A DNA stretch of 64,000 nt from the NCBI GenBank assembly GCA_964636435.1, contig CAZWRS010000002.1, positions 296-64,295 on the forward strand, given 5' to 3'. Of this stretch, positions 7,954 through 40,098 are shown in pieces. Position numbers and translations under genes: made by a program. Source of the DNA: an uncultured Candidatus Saccharibacteria bacterium (GTDB lineage: Bacteria > Patescibacteriota > Saccharimonadia > Saccharimonadales > JAGQNK01). The first letter of the stretch is position 1. The number at the start of each line of letters is the position of its first letter. Under the pieces are notes generated by a model that was not told the DNA's origin, did not search any database, and was given only the letters and a program-made list of their open reading frames with translations.

Positions 7954-10122
7954 ATGATGCAACATGATCTCTTGGTGGGTTTGAATACGGAGCAGCAGCG
8001 GGCGGTGGAGTGCACCGAGGGGCCGCTGCTTATTCTGGCTGGCGCTGGTTCTGGCAAGACGAAGACGCTCACGCACCGCATTGCGTACATCATTGCGACC
8101 GGGAAGGCCACACCCTATAACATTCTAGCGGTGACGTTTACCAACAAGGCCGCCCGGGAAATGCGTGAGCGCGTCGCACAGCTGCTCGGCCAGAGTGCTG
8201 ATAACCGTTCATTCATGCCCTTTATGGGGACGTTCCACTCTATCTGCGTACGACTGCTGCGGCAGGATGGGGAGCATATCGGCATCCCGAAGAACTTCGT
8301 GATTTTTGACGAGGCAGACCGCCTGGCGGCTGTGAAGCAGGCTTGCAAAACGGCCATGATTGATGAGAAGAGCTACCCGCCGCGAACACTGGCGAGCATT
8401 ATCAGCAACGCTAAGAATGAATTATTAACGCCGCAGGATTACTTAGGGGTGGCTAGCGGTCCGACGCAGCGTGCGGCGGCGCAAATTTTCCCACTGTATC
8501 AAAAAACACTCAAAGACAACAACGCACTGGACTTCGATGATTTGATTTCCCGCACCGTCAACTTGCTGCAAGCGCAGACGACAATCCGCCGCAAGTGGCA
8601 GGAGCAATTCAAGTACATCATGATTGATGAATACCAGGACACCAATGCTGCGCAGTACAAGCTCGTGAAATTATTGACAAACATTAATAATAATATTGTA
8701 GTAGTAGGCGATGATTTCCAGTCGATATATTCATGGAGGGGCGCAGATTTCCGCAATATTCTGAACTTTGAAAAAGACTATCCCAATGCAACTATTATCA
8801 AGCTGGAGCAGAACTACAGAAGTACGCAAGCTATCCTGAACGCAGCTCATCAGGTTATTACTAAGAATAAAGAAAGATCAGATAAGAAGCTCTGGACAGA
8901 CAACGGGGCTGGAAGCCCAGTGAGTGTATTGCAGGTCGCCAACGAGCGTGCTGAAGGCGAAGCCATAACCAGGCGGGTTAAGAACGCGGTGGATGCTCGG
9001 TTCCGAAACTACCGTGACTTTGCGGTACTGTATCGGACCAATGCCCAATCACGCAGCATTGAAGAGACATTCATTCGTTACGGTGTGCCGTATCGCATCG
9101 TGGGCGGTCAGCGCTTCTATGACCGTAAGGAAATTAAAGATGTCATGGCGTATTTACGCCTTATTTACCAACCCGAGGACCGGATAAGTTTTGAGCGGAT
9201 TGTAAACGTGCCGACGCGCGGTATCGGTGCCAAGTCGGTGCAGAACTTCTTTACCTGGAAGGACGCGAATAATCTGGGCCTGCAGCAGGCACTGGAAACG
9301 GTGCGTGATCACCCGAACTTGACCGGCAAGGCCCGGAAGGGTCTGCAGGAGCTGGGGGACATGCTACAGTCTCTGCGCGAGCTATCGACGGATACTCCGC
9401 TGCCAGCGTTGCTCGATAGCCTGCTGCGGCGGATCGACTACTTTGCCTACATTGACGATGGCACGCCGCAGGGCGAATCACGTGCCGAGAACGTGCGAGA
9501 ATTGGTGAGCGTCACCCAAAGTTACCAGGGCCTGGGATTGGATGGCTTCCTGGAGGAGATGGCCCTGATCAGCGACATCGACTCAGCTGAATTCAGCAAC
9601 AATGCCGTAACACTCATGACGATTCATGCTGCCAAAGGCCTAGAGTTCCCGGTGGTATTTATGATCGGCATGGAGGAAACGATTTTCCCGCACTCCCGTG
9701 CCCTGTACGATCAGGCGGAGATGGAGGAGGAGCGTCGGTTGTGCTACGTGGCGATGACCCGTGCCCGCGAAGAGCTCTACATGAGCTACGCAACCTCACG
9801 CATGCTTTATGGCGGTGTGCAGCACAACCCGCCGTCGCGCTTCTTGAGCGAATTTGACTCCCAACTACAGACCGACAGCATCAGCCTGGGTGGCGGGATG
9901 TGGCAGAATATCTTTGAACAGGAAAGCTATGACGACTTGCCGACCACGGTAGTCGATGAGCCGCAATATGTACCCGAGCTACATGAAGGCGACACCGTAA
10001 AGCACGATGTGTTTGGCCAGGGGACGGTCATGGAAGTCGATGGCGATAATGTCGTAGTGTACTTTAAGGGAAAGGGCGCCAAGAAGCTGAACGTGTCGTT
10101 TGCGCCCCTGCAAAAGTTATGA
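7954..10122 (+). CDS. uvrD: ATP-dependent DNA helicase UvrD/PcrA (SF1)
   Basis: LNTEQQRAV, Walker A AGAGSGKT, and TIHAAKGLEF motif V/VI region. Confidence 0.9.
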   Translation: MMQHDLLVGLNTEQQRAVECTEGPLLILAGAGSGKTKTLTHRIAYIIATGKATPYNILAVTFTNKAAREMRERVAQLLGQSADNRSFMPFMGTFHSICVRLLRQDGEHIGIPKNFVIFDEADRLAAVKQACKTAMIDEKSYPPRTLASIISNAKNELLTPQDYLGVASGPTQRAAAQIFPLYQKTLKDNNALDFDDLISRTVNLLQAQTTIRRKWQEQFKYIMIDEYQDTNAAQYKLVKLLTNINNNIVVVGDDFQSIYSWRGADFRNILNFEKDYPNATIIKLEQNYRSTQAILNAAHQVITKNKERSDKKLWTDNGAGSPVSVLQVANERAEGEAITRRVKNAVDARFRNYRDFAVLYRTNAQSRSIEETFIRYGVPYRIVGGQRFYDRKEIKDVMAYLRLIYQPEDRISFERIVNVPTRGIGAKSVQNFFTWKDANNLGLQQALETVRDHPNLTGKARKGLQELGDMLQSLRELSTDTPLPALLDSLLRRIDYFAYIDDGTPQGESRAENVRELVSVTQSYQGLGLDGFLEEMALISDIDSAEFSNNAVTLMTIHAAKGLEFPVVFMIGMEETIFPHSRALYDQAEMEEERRLCYVAMTRAREELYMSYATSRMLYGGVQHNPPSRFLSEFDSQLQTDSISLGGGMWQNIFEQESYDDLPTTVVDEPQYVPELHEGDTVKHDVFGQGTVMEVDGDNVVVYFKGKGAKKLNVSFAPLQKL

Positions 10123-14467: not shown

Positions 14468-14851
14468 GGGGCTGAATTTAAGCTCGACGTTGGACTTTAA
14501 CAGTTAGATCAGCAGGCCGCTTGTCAGCGTTATAGACACCATTTAGTAGATGCAGAAAAAGTATCTCTTAGCGACATGGTTGACCGTGTTCTCGGTCGCC
14601 GTGAAGCACTCGCTTTCGCCTAAGAACGGAAGCTATCTTTGGTCCGACGCCAGATAGGATCATTAGATATCATATTTTCTGGATGCCCATACGCAAGTGT
14701 TCCATAGCGTATGGAAAGACTTTTGGAACAGTCTCTTCAGCCTTTTGTTCGTTTTTATGCTGAAGAGGTGAACGTAAACGGACTATGCCTGTAGGATAGA
14801 CTAACTTAGTTAAACTAGCGGACGCGGGGGCAGTACCCGCCAGCTCCACCA
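14468..14851 (+). ncRNA. ssrA: tmRNA (transfer-messenger RNA, SsrA)
   Basis: 5' GGGGCTGAATTTAAGCTCGACG matches the tmRNA acceptor/D-arm. 3' GGACGCGGGGGCAGTACCCGCCAGCTCCACCA matches the T-arm/acceptor with encoded CCA. An internal tag frame ends ...GRREALAFA then TAA at 14621-14623. Confidence 0.85.
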
Positions 14852-20737: not shown

Positions 20738-21435
20738 ATGTATTATGCACATATGAGTAGGCCGCGGATAGCAATCATGGGATCGGGCGAAGGCTCTACA
20801 GCAGAAGTGTGCGCTCGGTCAGCCGCTGATGGAAGCTTGCGTGCAGACATTGGATTGGTCATATCTAATCAGCCGGCGTCGGGCATAATCAGGCGTGCGG
20901 AAAGCTGGGAGCACGTGTATGGGTTAGCAGTAGATTCGATCGTGATAAACCAGCATACGCACCCTGATGGGGCGCATGCCAGGGGGCAAACAGACAGTGA
21001 GTCACTGGCTATCGCCGAGAGCCTGGTAAAGCATGACATTGATCTCGTCCTGATGATGGGGTACTTGAGAATCGTAGGTAAGTTGCTACTGGAGAGGTAC
21101 GGCTTCGTCGCTGGCAGGCATAGTGATGTACGGCAGAGCCGGATGCTGAACTGGCATCCCGGTCCTTTGCCGCTGACTTCAAGCGAGTACGGTGTCGGGG
21201 CTGCCGAGAAAGTTCTGGATGCCTATATGGCCGGGAAGATCGTCAAATCTGCGTGTGTCTCGTGCATGCAGTTTCCGAATCAGTCGACGAAGGCCCAATT
21301 TGGCGGCTGCATGAGGTTCCGGTGCACGAGTACGACACACCCCAGAGTTTGTTTGGGCGTACACAAAAAATTGAAAAACAGTATTTAACACAAGACATCA
21401 ACGAGTTTATTGAGCTCCAGTCGGGGAGTCAGTAG
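20738..21435 (+). pseudogene. purN: PurN-like phosphoribosylglycinamide formyltransferase (formyl transferase family) interrupted by a -1 frameshift at a (GT)n tract near 21251-21260
   Basis: Frame A: RIAIMGSGEGS...LNWHPGPLP. Frame B from 21253: CLVHAVSESVDEGPIWRLHEVPVHEYDTPQSL, matching the TVHFVxEELDxGPIIxQxxVPVxxxDT core of PurN. No single frame covers both halves. Confidence 0.55.
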
Positions 21436-21495: not shown

Positions 21496-21729
21496 ATGAG
21501 AGCATGTATTGTGATGCTAGTGGTCGTGGCGGCCTTGGTGTTTGGCACTACTGGGACTGTTGCGGCGACTGACGAAGGCTTTGTACCGCAGACGTCATCG
21601 ACCAGAACGGATGTGCCGAGCCCGTCGGCCTTGCCGGCAGCCGGGGCGGGGCATGTGCTGGTAGTGTTTGCTGGGGCAACCGGTCTAGGTTTTGCCGGCC
21701 ATGTATGGCTTCGGCGTAAACGGGTATAA
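21496..21729 (+). CDS. 77-aa secreted mini-protein with C-terminal LPAAG sortase-type sorting signal
   Basis: Signal peptide MRACIVMLVVVAALVFGTTGTVAA. C-terminus LPAAG + hydrophobic segment + RRKRV. TATAAT at 21484-21489 only 6 nt before the ATG, with no SD, suggests a leaderless mRNA. Confidence 0.45.
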   Translation: MRACIVMLVVVAALVFGTTGTVAATDEGFVPQTSSTRTDVPSPSALPAAGAGHVLVVFAGATGLGFAGHVWLRRKRV

Positions 21730-21747
21730 GCCGGTAGGTTAATAAAA

Positions 21748-21774
21748 GCTCCGGCCACGAAGTGCGGCCGGAGC
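21748..21774. terminator. Bidirectional rho-independent terminator between convergent genes
   Basis: GCTCCGGCC-acgaagtgc-GGCCGGAGC hairpin followed by a T-rich tract. Confidence 0.6.
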
Positions 21775-21826: not shown

Positions 21827-22624
21827 CTAGTAGGCGTATGCCATGCGCTCGCGGTGGTACTTTTCGTACGACTTGTAGTCTTTGTCCTTGCGGCTGTCGT
21901 TGTCTTTGTGGTCATAGCCGCGCTTGTGATCATCCGATTTATCGTAACGGACGAACTTGGCACGGTGGTGACTTGAGTGCTGTTTGTGGTCTTTGCGCTC
22001 GTAATTGACATGCTTGTATGACTTATTCCGGTTATGTGAGCGGTGCTTGTCATAGTCCTTCTTGTACTCAGACTTTTTGTCGTAGTCACGATAGTCTTTT
22101 TTGTAGTCTTTCTTTTTATGGCTGTCGCTATGCTTGTGATCGTAGTCCTTTTTCTTGTGATCATAGGACCTCTTGGAGACGTACTTGACGGGCTTCTTGT
22201 GATCGTGCCTGTCGTAGTCTTTGCTGTAGCGCTCCTTGTGATCGTGCTTCTTGTGGTCCTTTTTGTAATCCTTCTTATGCTCCCACTTGTTATCGTGATG
22301 CTTTACATATTTCTTCTTGTCATCGTCTTTTCGCCAGTGGTTCCAGCTGTACTTGTGGTCATGGTCTTTTTTGTGCTTGGACGATGGTCGCCACCACTTA
22401 TGGGAGTCATGTGACTTCTTGTACTGGTGGCTGTATGAGTTGGATTTATGATGCTTCCAATCCCTATCCTTGCGGTCCGAGCTTTTATGCTTCTTATGCT
22501 TATTGTGGTAGGAGTGGTGCTGCTTTTTGTACGAATCGTAGTTCGTGTACTTCGTGCGCGTACCCGGAATGTAGGCCATTCCTATGACGAGGGCACTTAC
22601 ACAGGTTGCTACAAAGTAATACAT
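21827..22624 (-). CDS. Secreted/anchored extremely His-, Lys-, Asp-, Tyr-rich low-complexity protein (repeats of KKDY / DHK / HKK type)
   Basis: Strong SD AAGGAGGT 9 nt upstream of ATG. N-terminal hydrophobic signal/anchor MYYFVATCVSALVIGMAYIPG, then about 240 aa dominated by H, K, D and Y. Terminator at 21748-21774 downstream. Confidence 0.55.
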   Translation of the reverse strand: MYYFVATCVSALVIGMAYIPGTRTKYTNYDSYKKQHHSYHNKHKKHKSSDRKDRDWKHHKSNSYSHQYKKSHDSHKWWRPSSKHKKDHDHKYSWNHWRKDDDKKKYVKHHDNKWEHKKDYKKDHKKHDHKERYSKDYDRHDHKKPVKYVSKRSYDHKKKDYDHKHSDSHKKKDYKKDYRDYDKKSEYKKDYDKHRSHNRNKSYKHVNYERKDHKQHSSHHRAKFVRYDKSDDHKRGYDHKDNDSRKDKDYKSYEKYHRERMAYAY

Positions 22625-22827
22625 ACTTGCTACGTACCTCCTTGAAAGTTAGATTTGAAAATTAAATGCATGTACCTCCTTTCAAAGTCGCTTTTTTCAT
22701 TTTTAGCAAGGGCTGATATTCGGTGCCATGAGTATTCTCACACTACTTCCTATAGAGAACAGTTTGTAATATTTATTACTTACGGCAGGTGTAAAATAGA
22801 AGGGTAGGGTAAGGTAAGGGGTTTGGT

Positions 22828-23985
22828 ATGAATAGACGAGCAATACTGGGTGCACTGCTCTTGCTGGTGGTGCCGGTGTTTGCATGGGTCGGGCTGGCGA
22901 ACGCGCAAACGTTCCGCTCCGGTGATACGACGACAGTAGACGCCAATGAAACGGTGAATAGTTCGCTGTTTGCCAGCGGCCGCACGATAGACATTGCTGG
23001 AACAGTTGACGGTGACGTGTACTGCGCGGGCATGAATATATTCGTCAGCGGTACCGTGCGCGGTGATGTGCTGTGTGCCGGACAAAATGTGACAGTATCG
23101 GGTGAAGTTGAGGGAGATGTGCGGCTGGCTGGCCAGTCAGTAACGGTCAGCGGCCAGGTGGATGGCAGTGCGTCAGTAGCAACGGCAGCTTTCTCGCTGG
23201 ATAGCCGGGCGCGCATTGCCCGTGACCTGAGCGTGGCGAGCAGTGATATGGCGCTCAATGGCCAGGTTGGCCGGGATGCAGCGTTAGCCGGCGCAAGTGC
23301 GGTGCTCAATAACCAGATTGGTCGGAACGTAAATGCGAGCGTTGAGAGCTTGCGATTGAATGGTCAGGCAGATATCGGTGGCGGGCTGTACTACACGAGC
23401 AGTCAGGATGCGCAGCTTGCTGAAGGGGCGCAGGTAGCTGGCGAGACGCGGCGATCTGAACCGCAGCAGACCAAGGGCACGTTTGAGGCGCCGTTCATTA
23501 CCGGCGCATCGTTCGTGTTTTACACCATAGCGGCGTTGCTCATATTGTCACTGGCGCTGGTGCTGCTGTTTCCGCGAGCTGTGCATGCAGTCACGAGCCA
23601 GGCGGTTGCGCAGCCGCTGAAGGTGCTGCTGGTAGGCTTTGTGGCGAGCCTGGCAGTGCCGGTGCTCATTATCGTGCTGCTGGTTACGGTGCTGGGTATT
23701 CCGCTGGCCTTGCTGCTTCTTGGTATTTGGCTCCTGATACTGTTTCTGGCTGGCCCTGTCTTTAGCTACTATATCGGTCGGCTGCTGCTTTCGGGCCAGC
23801 GTAACGTGATGCTGATTATGGCGCTCGGTGCACTGGTGGTGCTGCTCCTGCTGTTCATACCGATCCTCGGCTTCCTGGTGTGGTTGGCGGCAATGTGGAT
23901 GGGTGCTGGCATGATCCTGCTCGAGATTACCCGCCGGACCCCGCGTCCACGATATGAGATAGAGCCAGCTGCGGCGAAGCGGTAG
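22828..23985 (+). CDS. Membrane protein with cleavable signal peptide, extracytoplasmic bactofilin-like beta-helix repeat domain and C-terminal polytopic TM region
   Basis: Signal ...GLANA|QT. Repeats VSGTVRGDVLCAGQNVTVSGEVEGDVRLAGQSVTVSGQVDG resemble bactofilin (DUF583) repeats. There are 4-5 C-terminal TM helices. Confidence 0.5.
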   Translation: MNRRAILGALLLLVVPVFAWVGLANAQTFRSGDTTTVDANETVNSSLFASGRTIDIAGTVDGDVYCAGMNIFVSGTVRGDVLCAGQNVTVSGEVEGDVRLAGQSVTVSGQVDGSASVATAAFSLDSRARIARDLSVASSDMALNGQVGRDAALAGASAVLNNQIGRNVNASVESLRLNGQADIGGGLYYTSSQDAQLAEGAQVAGETRRSEPQQTKGTFEAPFITGASFVFYTIAALLILSLALVLLFPRAVHAVTSQAVAQPLKVLLVGFVASLAVPVLIIVLLVTVLGIPLALLLLGIWLLILFLAGPVFSYYIGRLLLSGQRNVMLIMALGALVVLLLLFIPILGFLVWLAAMWMGAGMILLEITRRTPRPRYEIEPAAAKR

Positions 23986-39813: not shown

Positions 39814-39894
39814 CTGGCTTAGCAGTAATAAATCCCACAGCCAGGCAGTGGCCAAACCGCCTACACTAAAGGGGCGATTAACGAGGAGGTGCGT

Positions 39895-40059
39895 ATGGCT
39901 ATGGACGACAAGCTGAAGAATGCCGGCAACGACATGAAGCAAAAAGCGGATGATGCAATGGATTCGGCCAAGGATAAGGCCCAGGATGCTAAAACTGACA
40001 TGGCCGAGAAGAAGGGTGAGCTGAAAGGTGGGGCTGAAGAGCGCCGCGACGATGGGTAG
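39895..40059 (+). CDS. Small hydrophilic stress-protein-like peptide (CsbD/YjbJ-like, 54 aa)
   Basis: GAGGAGGT RBS 5 nt upstream. Lys/Asp/Ala-rich sequence MAMDDKLKNAGNDMKQKADDAMDSAKDKAQDAKTDMAEKKGELKGG. Confidence 0.45.
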   Translation: MAMDDKLKNAGNDMKQKADDAMDSAKDKAQDAKTDMAEKKGELKGGAEERRDDG

Positions 40060-40098
40060 TGGTCGGGATCTGCAGCCCTAAAGGTGCAGGTGAAAATA

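Follow-up and report, generated by a model that had tools for sequence, protein, structure and literature searches.

Here we describe a protein-coding gene at positions 21827 to 22624, minus strand, of a 64-kb stretch of DNA from an uncultured Candidatus Saccharibacteria bacterium (contig CAZWRS010000002.1; the whole stretch is called the window throughout). The gene encodes 265 residues, in which an N-terminal hydrophobic helix is followed by a basic, disordered tail of about 240 residues rich in Lys, Asp, His, Tyr, Ser and Arg. It is a genuine minus-strand gene of a soil-type Saccharibacteria lineage, is under purifying selection and belongs to a new, unnamed, narrow and fast-evolving family, found so far in five related Saccharibacteria species and lost from several others. 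The case is one of a family that is real, selected and syntenic, yet invisible to exhaustive sequence searches. As to what the gene does, the reading that we favour as a whole, tentatively and with somewhat less than even confidence, is that of a membrane-anchored, disordered polycation whose messenger carries a leader with two Shine-Dalgarno (SD) elements.

The gene, its conservation and its family

The reality of the gene can be judged from its ortholog in the metagenome-assembled genome (MAG) CAZNIN01 (locus L012), whose TypA is 89.5% identical to the TypA of the window and whose gene order is shared; the genes around ours assign the window to Candidatus Saccharibacteria. Both this MAG and a short contig of the same population (locus L011, protein P0001) hold an ortholog of 248-249 residues in the same slot. 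Compared with L012, the sense frame of the window shows 0.22 non-synonymous differences per non-synonymous site (pN) against 0.85 synonymous differences per synonymous site (pS), and there are nine indels, every one a multiple of three. The same comparison shows conservation of the start region, of the two SD motifs and, as a hairpin with another sequence, of the terminator. One could instead suppose that there is no such gene, only a chance open reading frame (ORF) in DNA of skewed composition, or that the true gene is the hydrophobic plus-strand ORF at 22043-22414; no database family speaks for the minus-strand protein, and the in-phase antisense frame is indeed open, for 123 codons in the window and 171 in L012. 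However, that plus-strand ORF is an in-phase antisense mirror of the gene with a pN/pS of about 1.05, and the constraint on the sense frame, the conserved signals around it and the syntenic members in five species effectively refute both versions of this idea. Ten contigs, independently assembled from different sequencing runs, are identical to the window base for base across the gene and its flanks, so the gene is not an assembly artefact, and Tandem Repeats Finder together with these contigs rules out a DNA-level repeat as its source. An earlier reading of this DNA from its letters only (hereafter the sequence-only reading) had picked the minus-strand ORF as the gene and had named a conserved plus-strand frame and an assembly artefact as two of the ways in which that choice could fail; it failed in neither.

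Translation begins at an ATG, and the 265 codons specify a protein of 23.0% K, 13.6% D, 13.6% H, 11.7% Y, 9.8% S and 6.8% R. These six amino acids account for 84% of the 240 residues from 26 to 265, much as the sequence-only reading had described an extreme H/K/D/Y/S/R-rich tail behind a hydrophobic N-terminus, and a composition count finds no Cys, Ile or Leu after residue 25. The combined fraction of K, D, H and Y is 0.60, against 0.26 in the runner-up among window ORFs of at least 80 residues. The tail, taken as residues 22-265, has an isoelectric point (pI) of 9.8, a net charge of about +39 at pH 7 and a grand average of hydropathy (GRAVY) of -2.7, and AlphaFold2 gives helices at residues 2-17 and 254-260 only, with the remainder at a predicted local distance difference test score (pLDDT) below 50 and a mean of 43.5. 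Short motifs do recur, as had been noticed (KKDY five times, DHK nine times, HKK seven times), but Tandem Repeats Finder reports no repeat array in the gene; we therefore describe the tail as cryptic low complexity, without true repeats.

Conservation within the protein is very uneven. The membrane-anchor helix, codons 1-21 (MYYFVATCVSALVIGMAYIPG; 22562..22624, minus strand), has no charged residue ahead of it and is identical at all 21 residues between the window and L012, with seven synonymous and no non-synonymous changes, while the remaining protein is identical at 119 of 260 positions. The helix of locus L016 carries three conservative changes relative to the window, and M1, A6, C8, A11 and K25 are invariant in all members, the helix holding an A-T/S-C motif. 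A second conserved piece is the C-terminal motif at codons 250-265 (YKSYEKYHRERMAYAY; 21830..21877, minus strand), which is shared with the sister species (L011/L012) and takes in the predicted helix at 254-260. Across aligned positions, K and Y are identical at 71-75%, whereas His, at 45%, is the lowest of the abundant residues; the commonest substitution is between H and Y, and the relatives contain 11.4-11.5% His compared with the 13.6% of the window. The aromatic residues Y, W and F are also evenly spaced in the window and L012 (squared coefficient of variation of the gaps 0.38, against 0.80 in shuffled sequences, p ~0.006), with 0-1 adjacent pairs where 5-6 are expected. When His is counted with them, the even spacing holds in all three full-length members (p <= 0.007, with p = 0.007 in locus L017). 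What selection keeps is the anchor helix, the composition and the places where Lys and Tyr stand. The exact sequence is not kept: indels are frequent, and His and Tyr interchange.

A family of this kind is hard to find by similarity. Searches of 5.8 and 1.84 billion proteins, both word-indexed and by exhaustive HMMER runs, returned P0001 as the sole homolog, and a two-sequence profile found nothing beyond it. There was no family in Pfam-A at E<=0.01, none in NCBIfam at E<=1 and no chain in the PDB at E<=10, so that the earlier remark that no named bacterial family has this composition holds across all of these collections. A tblastn search of phage and plasmid sequences gave no match, two metagenome scans (one with back-translated motifs, the other with a degenerate N-terminal pattern) found nothing, and the exact sequence is absent from the clustered protein collection. 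Since protein searches yielded P0001 alone, we searched by position instead, gathering homologs of the divergently transcribed DUF8173 neighbour and inspecting their contigs for a gene in the same slot. This gave three more members in the same slot and orientation, too diverged for BLAST. One is full-length (L017:77-820, 247 residues; tail with 19% K, 13% D, 11.5% H, 9% S and 9% Y, pI 9.3) and reaches only E = 0.012 against the window protein in a pairwise BLASTP; the other two are partial and begin MSYIFASCVAAIFFFTAYVPGYHAKD (L019) and MYYFVATCVSALIIGMVYIPSAYTKSANYDSYKKQH (L016). The slot is empty or otherwise occupied in six further loci (L013, L014, L015, L018, L020 and L022). In a neighbour-joining tree of the DUF8173 protein, a single-gene tree without bootstrap, gene-bearing and gene-lacking loci are interleaved inside one subclade, which agrees with a gene that arose at the base of the subclade and was then lost more than once. 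A horizontal origin is without support, as there are no foreign hits and both GC content at third codon positions and codon use are native or better. The apparent orphan status of the gene comes from a family that evolves too fast for sequence searches, because only the composition, the anchor helix and the leader signals are conserved.

A leader with two Shine-Dalgarno elements

The leader is best seen against translation initiation in the rest of the window, where gene starts were taken as those of the longest ORF, a convention with which the following start statistics have to be read. At the 40 other inferred starts, no SD match exceeds 5 nt. A TAnnnT box resembling a -10 element lies 3-12 nt upstream of 12 of the 41 starts, against 1.3 expected (p = 3e-9); examples are the starts at 7954, 11929, 21496, 40184, 42118, 47982, 49292 and 61567. 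Because SD sequences are mostly lacking and -10 boxes abut the starts, the pattern suggests that mRNAs without a leader, or with a very short one, are widespread in this Saccharibacterium, as in the leaderless group C initiation pattern (PMC6028130). Only one other gene in the window is strongly SD-led, at ~39884-40062 on the plus strand, where GAGGAGGTG stands 4-5 nt ahead of the ATG and the start is at ~39901. It encodes a highly charged protein of 54 residues (MAMDDKLKNAGNDMKQKADD...), followed by a terminator-like hairpin, and its match to the YtxH stress-protein family is weak (E = 6e-4, below the cutoff). Both of the SD-led genes encode hydrophilic, charged proteins.

The working ribosome-binding site of our gene, which we call SD2, is AAGGAGGT at 22636..22643 (minus strand), 12 nt ahead of the ATG. 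A further 38 nt upstream, at 22674..22683 (minus strand), lies SD1, the SD-like 10-mer GAAAGGAGGT, with a second copy of AAGGAGGT inside it; these two copies, both ahead of the gene, are the only ones on either strand of the 64 kb (128 kb of two-strand sequence). The tandem arrangement that the sequence-only reading had pointed out is therefore present, and it is also conserved in five species. The GGAG core of the working site lies 5-12 nt ahead of the start in all five, the distance from SD1 to the working SD is 36-44 nt, and GAAAGGAGGT shows no change among the window, L011/L012, L016, L017 and L019. Each gene-bearing locus has a single copy, and seven gene-lacking loci have none.

Further upstream, a promoter-like block with an extended -10-like sequence (TGTGAGAAT-ACTC-ATGGCA; 22724..22742, minus strand) is our candidate for the promoter. 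Some 95-105 nt ahead of the start, the form TGTGA(G/A)AAT...ATGGCA is common to the window, L017 and L019, and variants are found in L011/L012 (TGAGAGAAT) and in L016 (ACGGCA). The ATGGCA itself, at 22724-22729 (minus strand) just past the TGTGA(G/A)AAT block, is kept in L012, L017 and L019, and it opens short ORFs that are not conserved (MAPNISPC* in the window, MAPRTLSWYKWKK* in L012); it may be an AUG at the very 5' end of the leader, or else no more than the region where transcription starts. At the other end, an intrinsic terminator with its T tract occupies 21741..21774 (minus strand), an 11-bp stem with nine GC pairs at 21774-21748 followed by TTTTATT. Its fold has a z-score of -3.1, and L012 has a hairpin of differing sequence in the same place with a z-score of -4.2, so that the terminator and the perfect SD named in the sequence-only reading are both borne out. 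The gene is monocistronic. Its bias towards codons ending in C or G is 0.68, compared with 0.53 +/- 0.07 and a maximum of 0.63 in 29 reference genes, and since this bias exceeds that of all 29 and the terminator is strong, high expression is somewhat favoured. The gene would be expressed through a leader of about 100 nt, with SD1 some 38 nt ahead of the site that starts translation.

In the window SD1 is followed by a mini-ORF of 13 codons (MHLIFKSNFQGGT plus stop; 22630..22671, minus strand), whose ATG comes 3 nt past the GGAGG of SD1 and whose end falls just past SD2. The earlier suggestion of a leader-peptide arrangement rested on this ORF, and the evidence on it is mixed. Positional analogues exist in L016 (ATG, 17 codons) and L017 (TTG, 13 codons), so that in three of the five species a short ORF starts 1-3 nt past the GGAGG and ends within 12 nt of the main ATG or overlaps it; shuffling gives such an upstream ORF (uORF) a chance of 2-8% per leader, though this test was set up after the data had been seen, and on related species. 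The peptides are unrelated, however, and L011, L012 and L019 have no mini-ORF and no start codon within 6 nt of GAAAGGAGGT, although SD1 is unchanged there. No conserved RNA structure was seen in consensus folds of three or four species, the minimum free energy of the leader has a z-score of +0.35, and Rfam gave no family, only a single chance miRNA match at E = 0.5.

A gap of 1-3 nt between SD and start is too short for efficient SD-led initiation. Because of this, and because SD1 is kept where no start codon follows it, we favour a role in binding the 30S subunit, in which SD1 would recruit or park 30S as a standby site or as an mRNA stabiliser of the STAB-SD type; by analogy we consider this close to an even call. 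That SD1 serves a conserved leader peptide is unlikely. Doubtful, too, is the reading of the leader as a uORF device, in which ribosomes loaded at SD1 would translate the mini-ORF and their termination beside the main start would control or boost translation of the gene: it has the three qualifying uORFs in its favour and against it the species that lack one, the unrelated peptides, the short gap and the lack of a conserved RNA structure on which such a device could act. Translational coupling through a uORF is possible as a secondary or alternative role of SD1. The closest known case for 30S binding is the STAB-SD of cry3A in B. thuringiensis, to which the 30S subunit binds and which stops RNase J1 from degrading the mRNA in the 5'-3' direction (PMC4113751). 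Like it, and like standby sites, SD1 is an SD-like element of the 5' untranslated region (UTR), far upstream of the real ribosome-binding site and not in need of a start codon, and GAAAGGAGGT has the sequence hallmark of a STAB-SD, namely conserved SD complementarity in the 5' UTR independent of a start codon. Unlike in cry3A, a short ORF does follow SD1 in three of the five species. Neither an RNase J gene nor a 16S rRNA gene lies within the 64-kb window.

Topology and possible function

The topology of the protein and its possible cleavage were judged by sequence rules. The residues ahead of the helix (MYY, MSY or MIH) include no K or R in the five species, and a basic flank follows just after the helix in all five, with R23, K25, K33 and K34 in the window. 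By the positive-inside rule a basic flank favours the cytoplasmic side, and positive charges just behind a signal peptide block export. For these reasons the helix is probably an uncleaved N-out/C-in anchor that leaves the basic tail in the cytoplasm. By the same rules a cleavable Sec signal for signal peptidase I (SPase I) is not found in the five species, given the missing positive n-region and the lack of a conserved small-x-small site, and there is no lipobox ([LVI][ASTVI][GAS]C some 15-35 residues from a charged N-terminus), the conserved Cys at position 8 following V-A-T without K or R ahead. The sole plausible SPase I site, G-M-A-Y with cleavage between A and Y, is present in the window, L011 and L012 and lost in the other relatives, which have V at -1 (L016), F at -3 (L019) or P at +1 (L017). 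Both flanking secreted proteins, on the other hand, have classical signal peptides with R/K n-regions (MNRR..., MR...). In these two the mature part is the better conserved (286/359 against 16/26 in the signal peptide, and 35/59 against 9/25); in our protein the order is reversed, and the N-terminal segment is conserved best. The sequence-only reading had called the protein secreted, a description that finds no support here.

It remains conceivable, if unlikely, that the N-terminal segment is a Sec signal or a type II anchor and that the tail is exported, as a polycationic Tyr-rich adhesive or a binder of teichoic acid or the host surface in an epibiont. The organism is a Saccharibacterium, a small-x-small site is at least possible in the window, the neighbours encode envelope proteins (an LPXTG mini-protein and a bactofilin/DUF8173 protein with a signal peptide), and marine adhesive and coacervate proteins have a comparable K/Y/H-rich composition. 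Export would require about 77 K and R residues to cross the membrane, and it is at odds with the n-region, the basic flank, the lost cleavage site and a segment that stays invariant while the true signal peptides next door diverge.

In the reading that we favour, the product would be a bitopic membrane protein held by its uncleaved N-terminal helix, and the tail of about 240 residues would lie in the cytoplasm as a strongly basic and intrinsically disordered polyampholyte built from Lys, Asp, His, Tyr and Ser. It would act through bulk multivalent physics, as a membrane-tethered polycation with evenly spaced aromatic and His stickers, the His lending its charge a sensitivity to pH and metal. 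Because selection bears on the composition, on where Lys and Tyr are placed and on the anchor, but on no exact sequence or fold, a function through bulk properties is suggested. The partners of such a tail may be cytoplasmic polyanions, that is nucleic acids, ribosomes, polyphosphate or anionic lipid; this step is possible, and on its own more tentative than the reading as a whole. Several observations weigh against the favoured reading. The gene has been repeatedly lost and is to that extent dispensable, and the hydrophobicity of the anchor helix is only moderate (maximum 19-residue Kyte-Doolittle mean 1.79, at residue 1). Net charge is basic in all full-length members yet spreads widely, at +37, +19 and +14; the C-terminal motif YKSYEK..ERM.YAY is limited to the closest species and lost in L017; and in L017 the spacing of Y, W and F without His is not significant (p = 0.69). 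The even spacing of aromatics could simply be a relic of eroded short repeats, and the uORF beside SD1, being above chance in three of five species, means that SD1 may drive translation of a short ORF.

Two further functions have to be weighed, both of them improbable and the first slightly more so. The abundance of His, together with Asp, could make the protein a store or buffer of divalent metal (Zn, Ni or Cu), perhaps tied to cation homeostasis near MgtE. Its 36 His amount to 13.6% of the protein and form 15 DH/HD pairs, eight H..H and four each of HH, H.H and H...H, and a gene for MgtE lies two genes off. Yet fixed metal sites are unlikely because His is poorly conserved and exchanged with Tyr, mostly being replaced by it, and its share falls in the relatives. 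There are no His runs and no Cys such as Hpn-type proteins have (only four HH pairs at 13.6% His, in a tail without Cys), dense Lys should disfavour cation binding, and the MgtE gene is on the opposite strand with another gene between, equally present at gene-lacking loci. The other, which we regard as a serious rival, is a membrane-tethered stress protectant of the dehydrin or late embryogenesis abundant (LEA) type, shielding the membrane in drying or cold and expressed through an SD-dependent route reserved for stress genes. Extreme hydrophilicity and predicted disorder would suit it, the relatives come from soil-type samples (JX_forest), and the other SD-led gene of the window, with its GAGGAGGTG at ~39901-40062, encodes the weakly YtxH-like charged protein. 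But the protein has no K-segment and no match to the dehydrin, LEA, CsbD or YtxH families of Pfam, the tail contains 0.4% Gly where the definition of a hydrophilin requires >6%, and the association of SD-led starts with stress genes comes down to two genes. A literature look-up of the habitat by way of SRP144015 gave nothing.

The closest analogues in composition and modular logic are CotG, CotC and CotU, coat proteins of Bacillus, which are likewise positively supercharged, disordered and extremely rich in Lys, Tyr, His, Asp and Ser. CotG-like proteins form a family without primary-sequence homology, modular and with conserved ends around a variable charged centre that serves as a spacer (PMC9765600), and the Tyr-rich CotC and CotU assemble into high-mass forms (PMC7944565). 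They are not homologous to our protein; a BLASTP comparison with one CotC sequence gave E = 13. Unlike CotG, our protein lacks tandem repeats and has an N-terminal membrane helix, and its host is a non-sporulating Saccharibacterium; no CotH-type kinase was seen within the window, a genome-wide search not having been made.

In its inferred topology the protein resembles ZipA, which has an N-out/C-in anchor, a charged disordered linker and a C-terminal interaction module: the short anchor lacks a positive n-region, the long stretch behind it would be charged, disordered and cytoplasmic, and there is a small conserved C-terminal element, in the closest species only. It has no sequence or domain similarity to ZipA and no globular C-terminal domain, and the C-terminal motif is absent from L017. 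Cationic His-rich proteins such as histatins and KS-type dehydrins bind membranes, metals and nucleic acids, and they share with our protein a disordered chain dominated by H, K, R, Y, D and S and a charge tunable by pH and metal. Those, however, are secreted peptides and soluble plant proteins; ours lacks a K-segment, an ATCUN or HEXXH-like motif and any Pfam match, and its His positions are poorly conserved.

A bolder version of the favoured reading, which we offer as speculation and think quite improbable as it stands, is that an abundant, membrane-tethered and condensate-forming polycation arranges nucleic acid, ribosomes or polyphosphate along the inner membrane face, and that together with the YtxH-like gene it marks a separate translation route, dependent on SD or STAB-SD elements, amid leaderless housekeeping mRNAs.

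Neighbouring genes and meaning for Saccharibacteria

The gene sits among others that bear on the cell envelope. On the plus strand at 21496-21729 is a mini-gene for a protein of 77 residues, in which a signal peptide and about 20 further residues are followed by LPAAG, then a hydrophobic stretch, then RRKRV. The protein looks like a sortase substrate almost without a passenger domain; the TIGR01167 model for LPXTG anchors gives E = 0.072, below its cutoff. Orthologs lie at L012:4718-4972 and L013:5601-5846, relatives have LPATG or MPETG as the motif, and L018:517-1176 encodes a longer relative of 219 residues that ends in LPATG. Between TypA and this mini-gene, at 20738-21388 (plus strand), is a formyltransferase-like gene (PF00551), and the same position in L012:4177-4683, L013:5063-5560 and L015:3366-3875 is taken by a YdjM-type membrane hydrolase gene instead; the difference is a local gene replacement.

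In the protein of the divergent neighbour at 22828-23985 (plus strand), a signal peptide is combined with a bactofilin-like domain (PF04519), which presumably lies outside the cell, and with a multi-pass membrane domain, DUF8173. The protein occurs widely in Saccharimonadales, where 219 homologs reach E<=1e-40. The divergent promoter region holds a perfect 14-bp palindrome, GTAATAAATATTAC, at 22766-22779, which is conserved in L011, L012 and L016. We considered it as an operator for a metal regulator of our gene and rejected it, as it is kept with one mismatch in L013, which is without the gene, is not kept in L017 and L019, and is not repeated perfectly elsewhere in the window. It is probably part of the promoter of the DUF8173 gene. 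Farther away, at 14468-14851 (plus strand), lies a tmRNA that scores 87.9 bits with Rfam and was missed by ARAGORN. Its tag, read by eye only, appears to be AEKVSLSDMVDRVLGRREALAFA and ends in ALAFA; with a possible C-terminal degron in mind, it was set beside the AYAY at the end of our protein.

The narrow distribution of the family and its repeated loss limit its general importance. For the largely uncultured Saccharibacteria, the gene flags a probably abundant, envelope-associated protein of unusual chemistry. Being a clear exception among leaderless, SD-free starts, it also offers an entry point to the division of translation initiation in reduced cells, and the invariant SD1 is a simple candidate for an mRNA-stabilising or standby element outside the Firmicutes. 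If the separate SD-dependent route were true, two translation regimes would partition the classes of the proteome in the ultrasmall Saccharibacteria of this clade.

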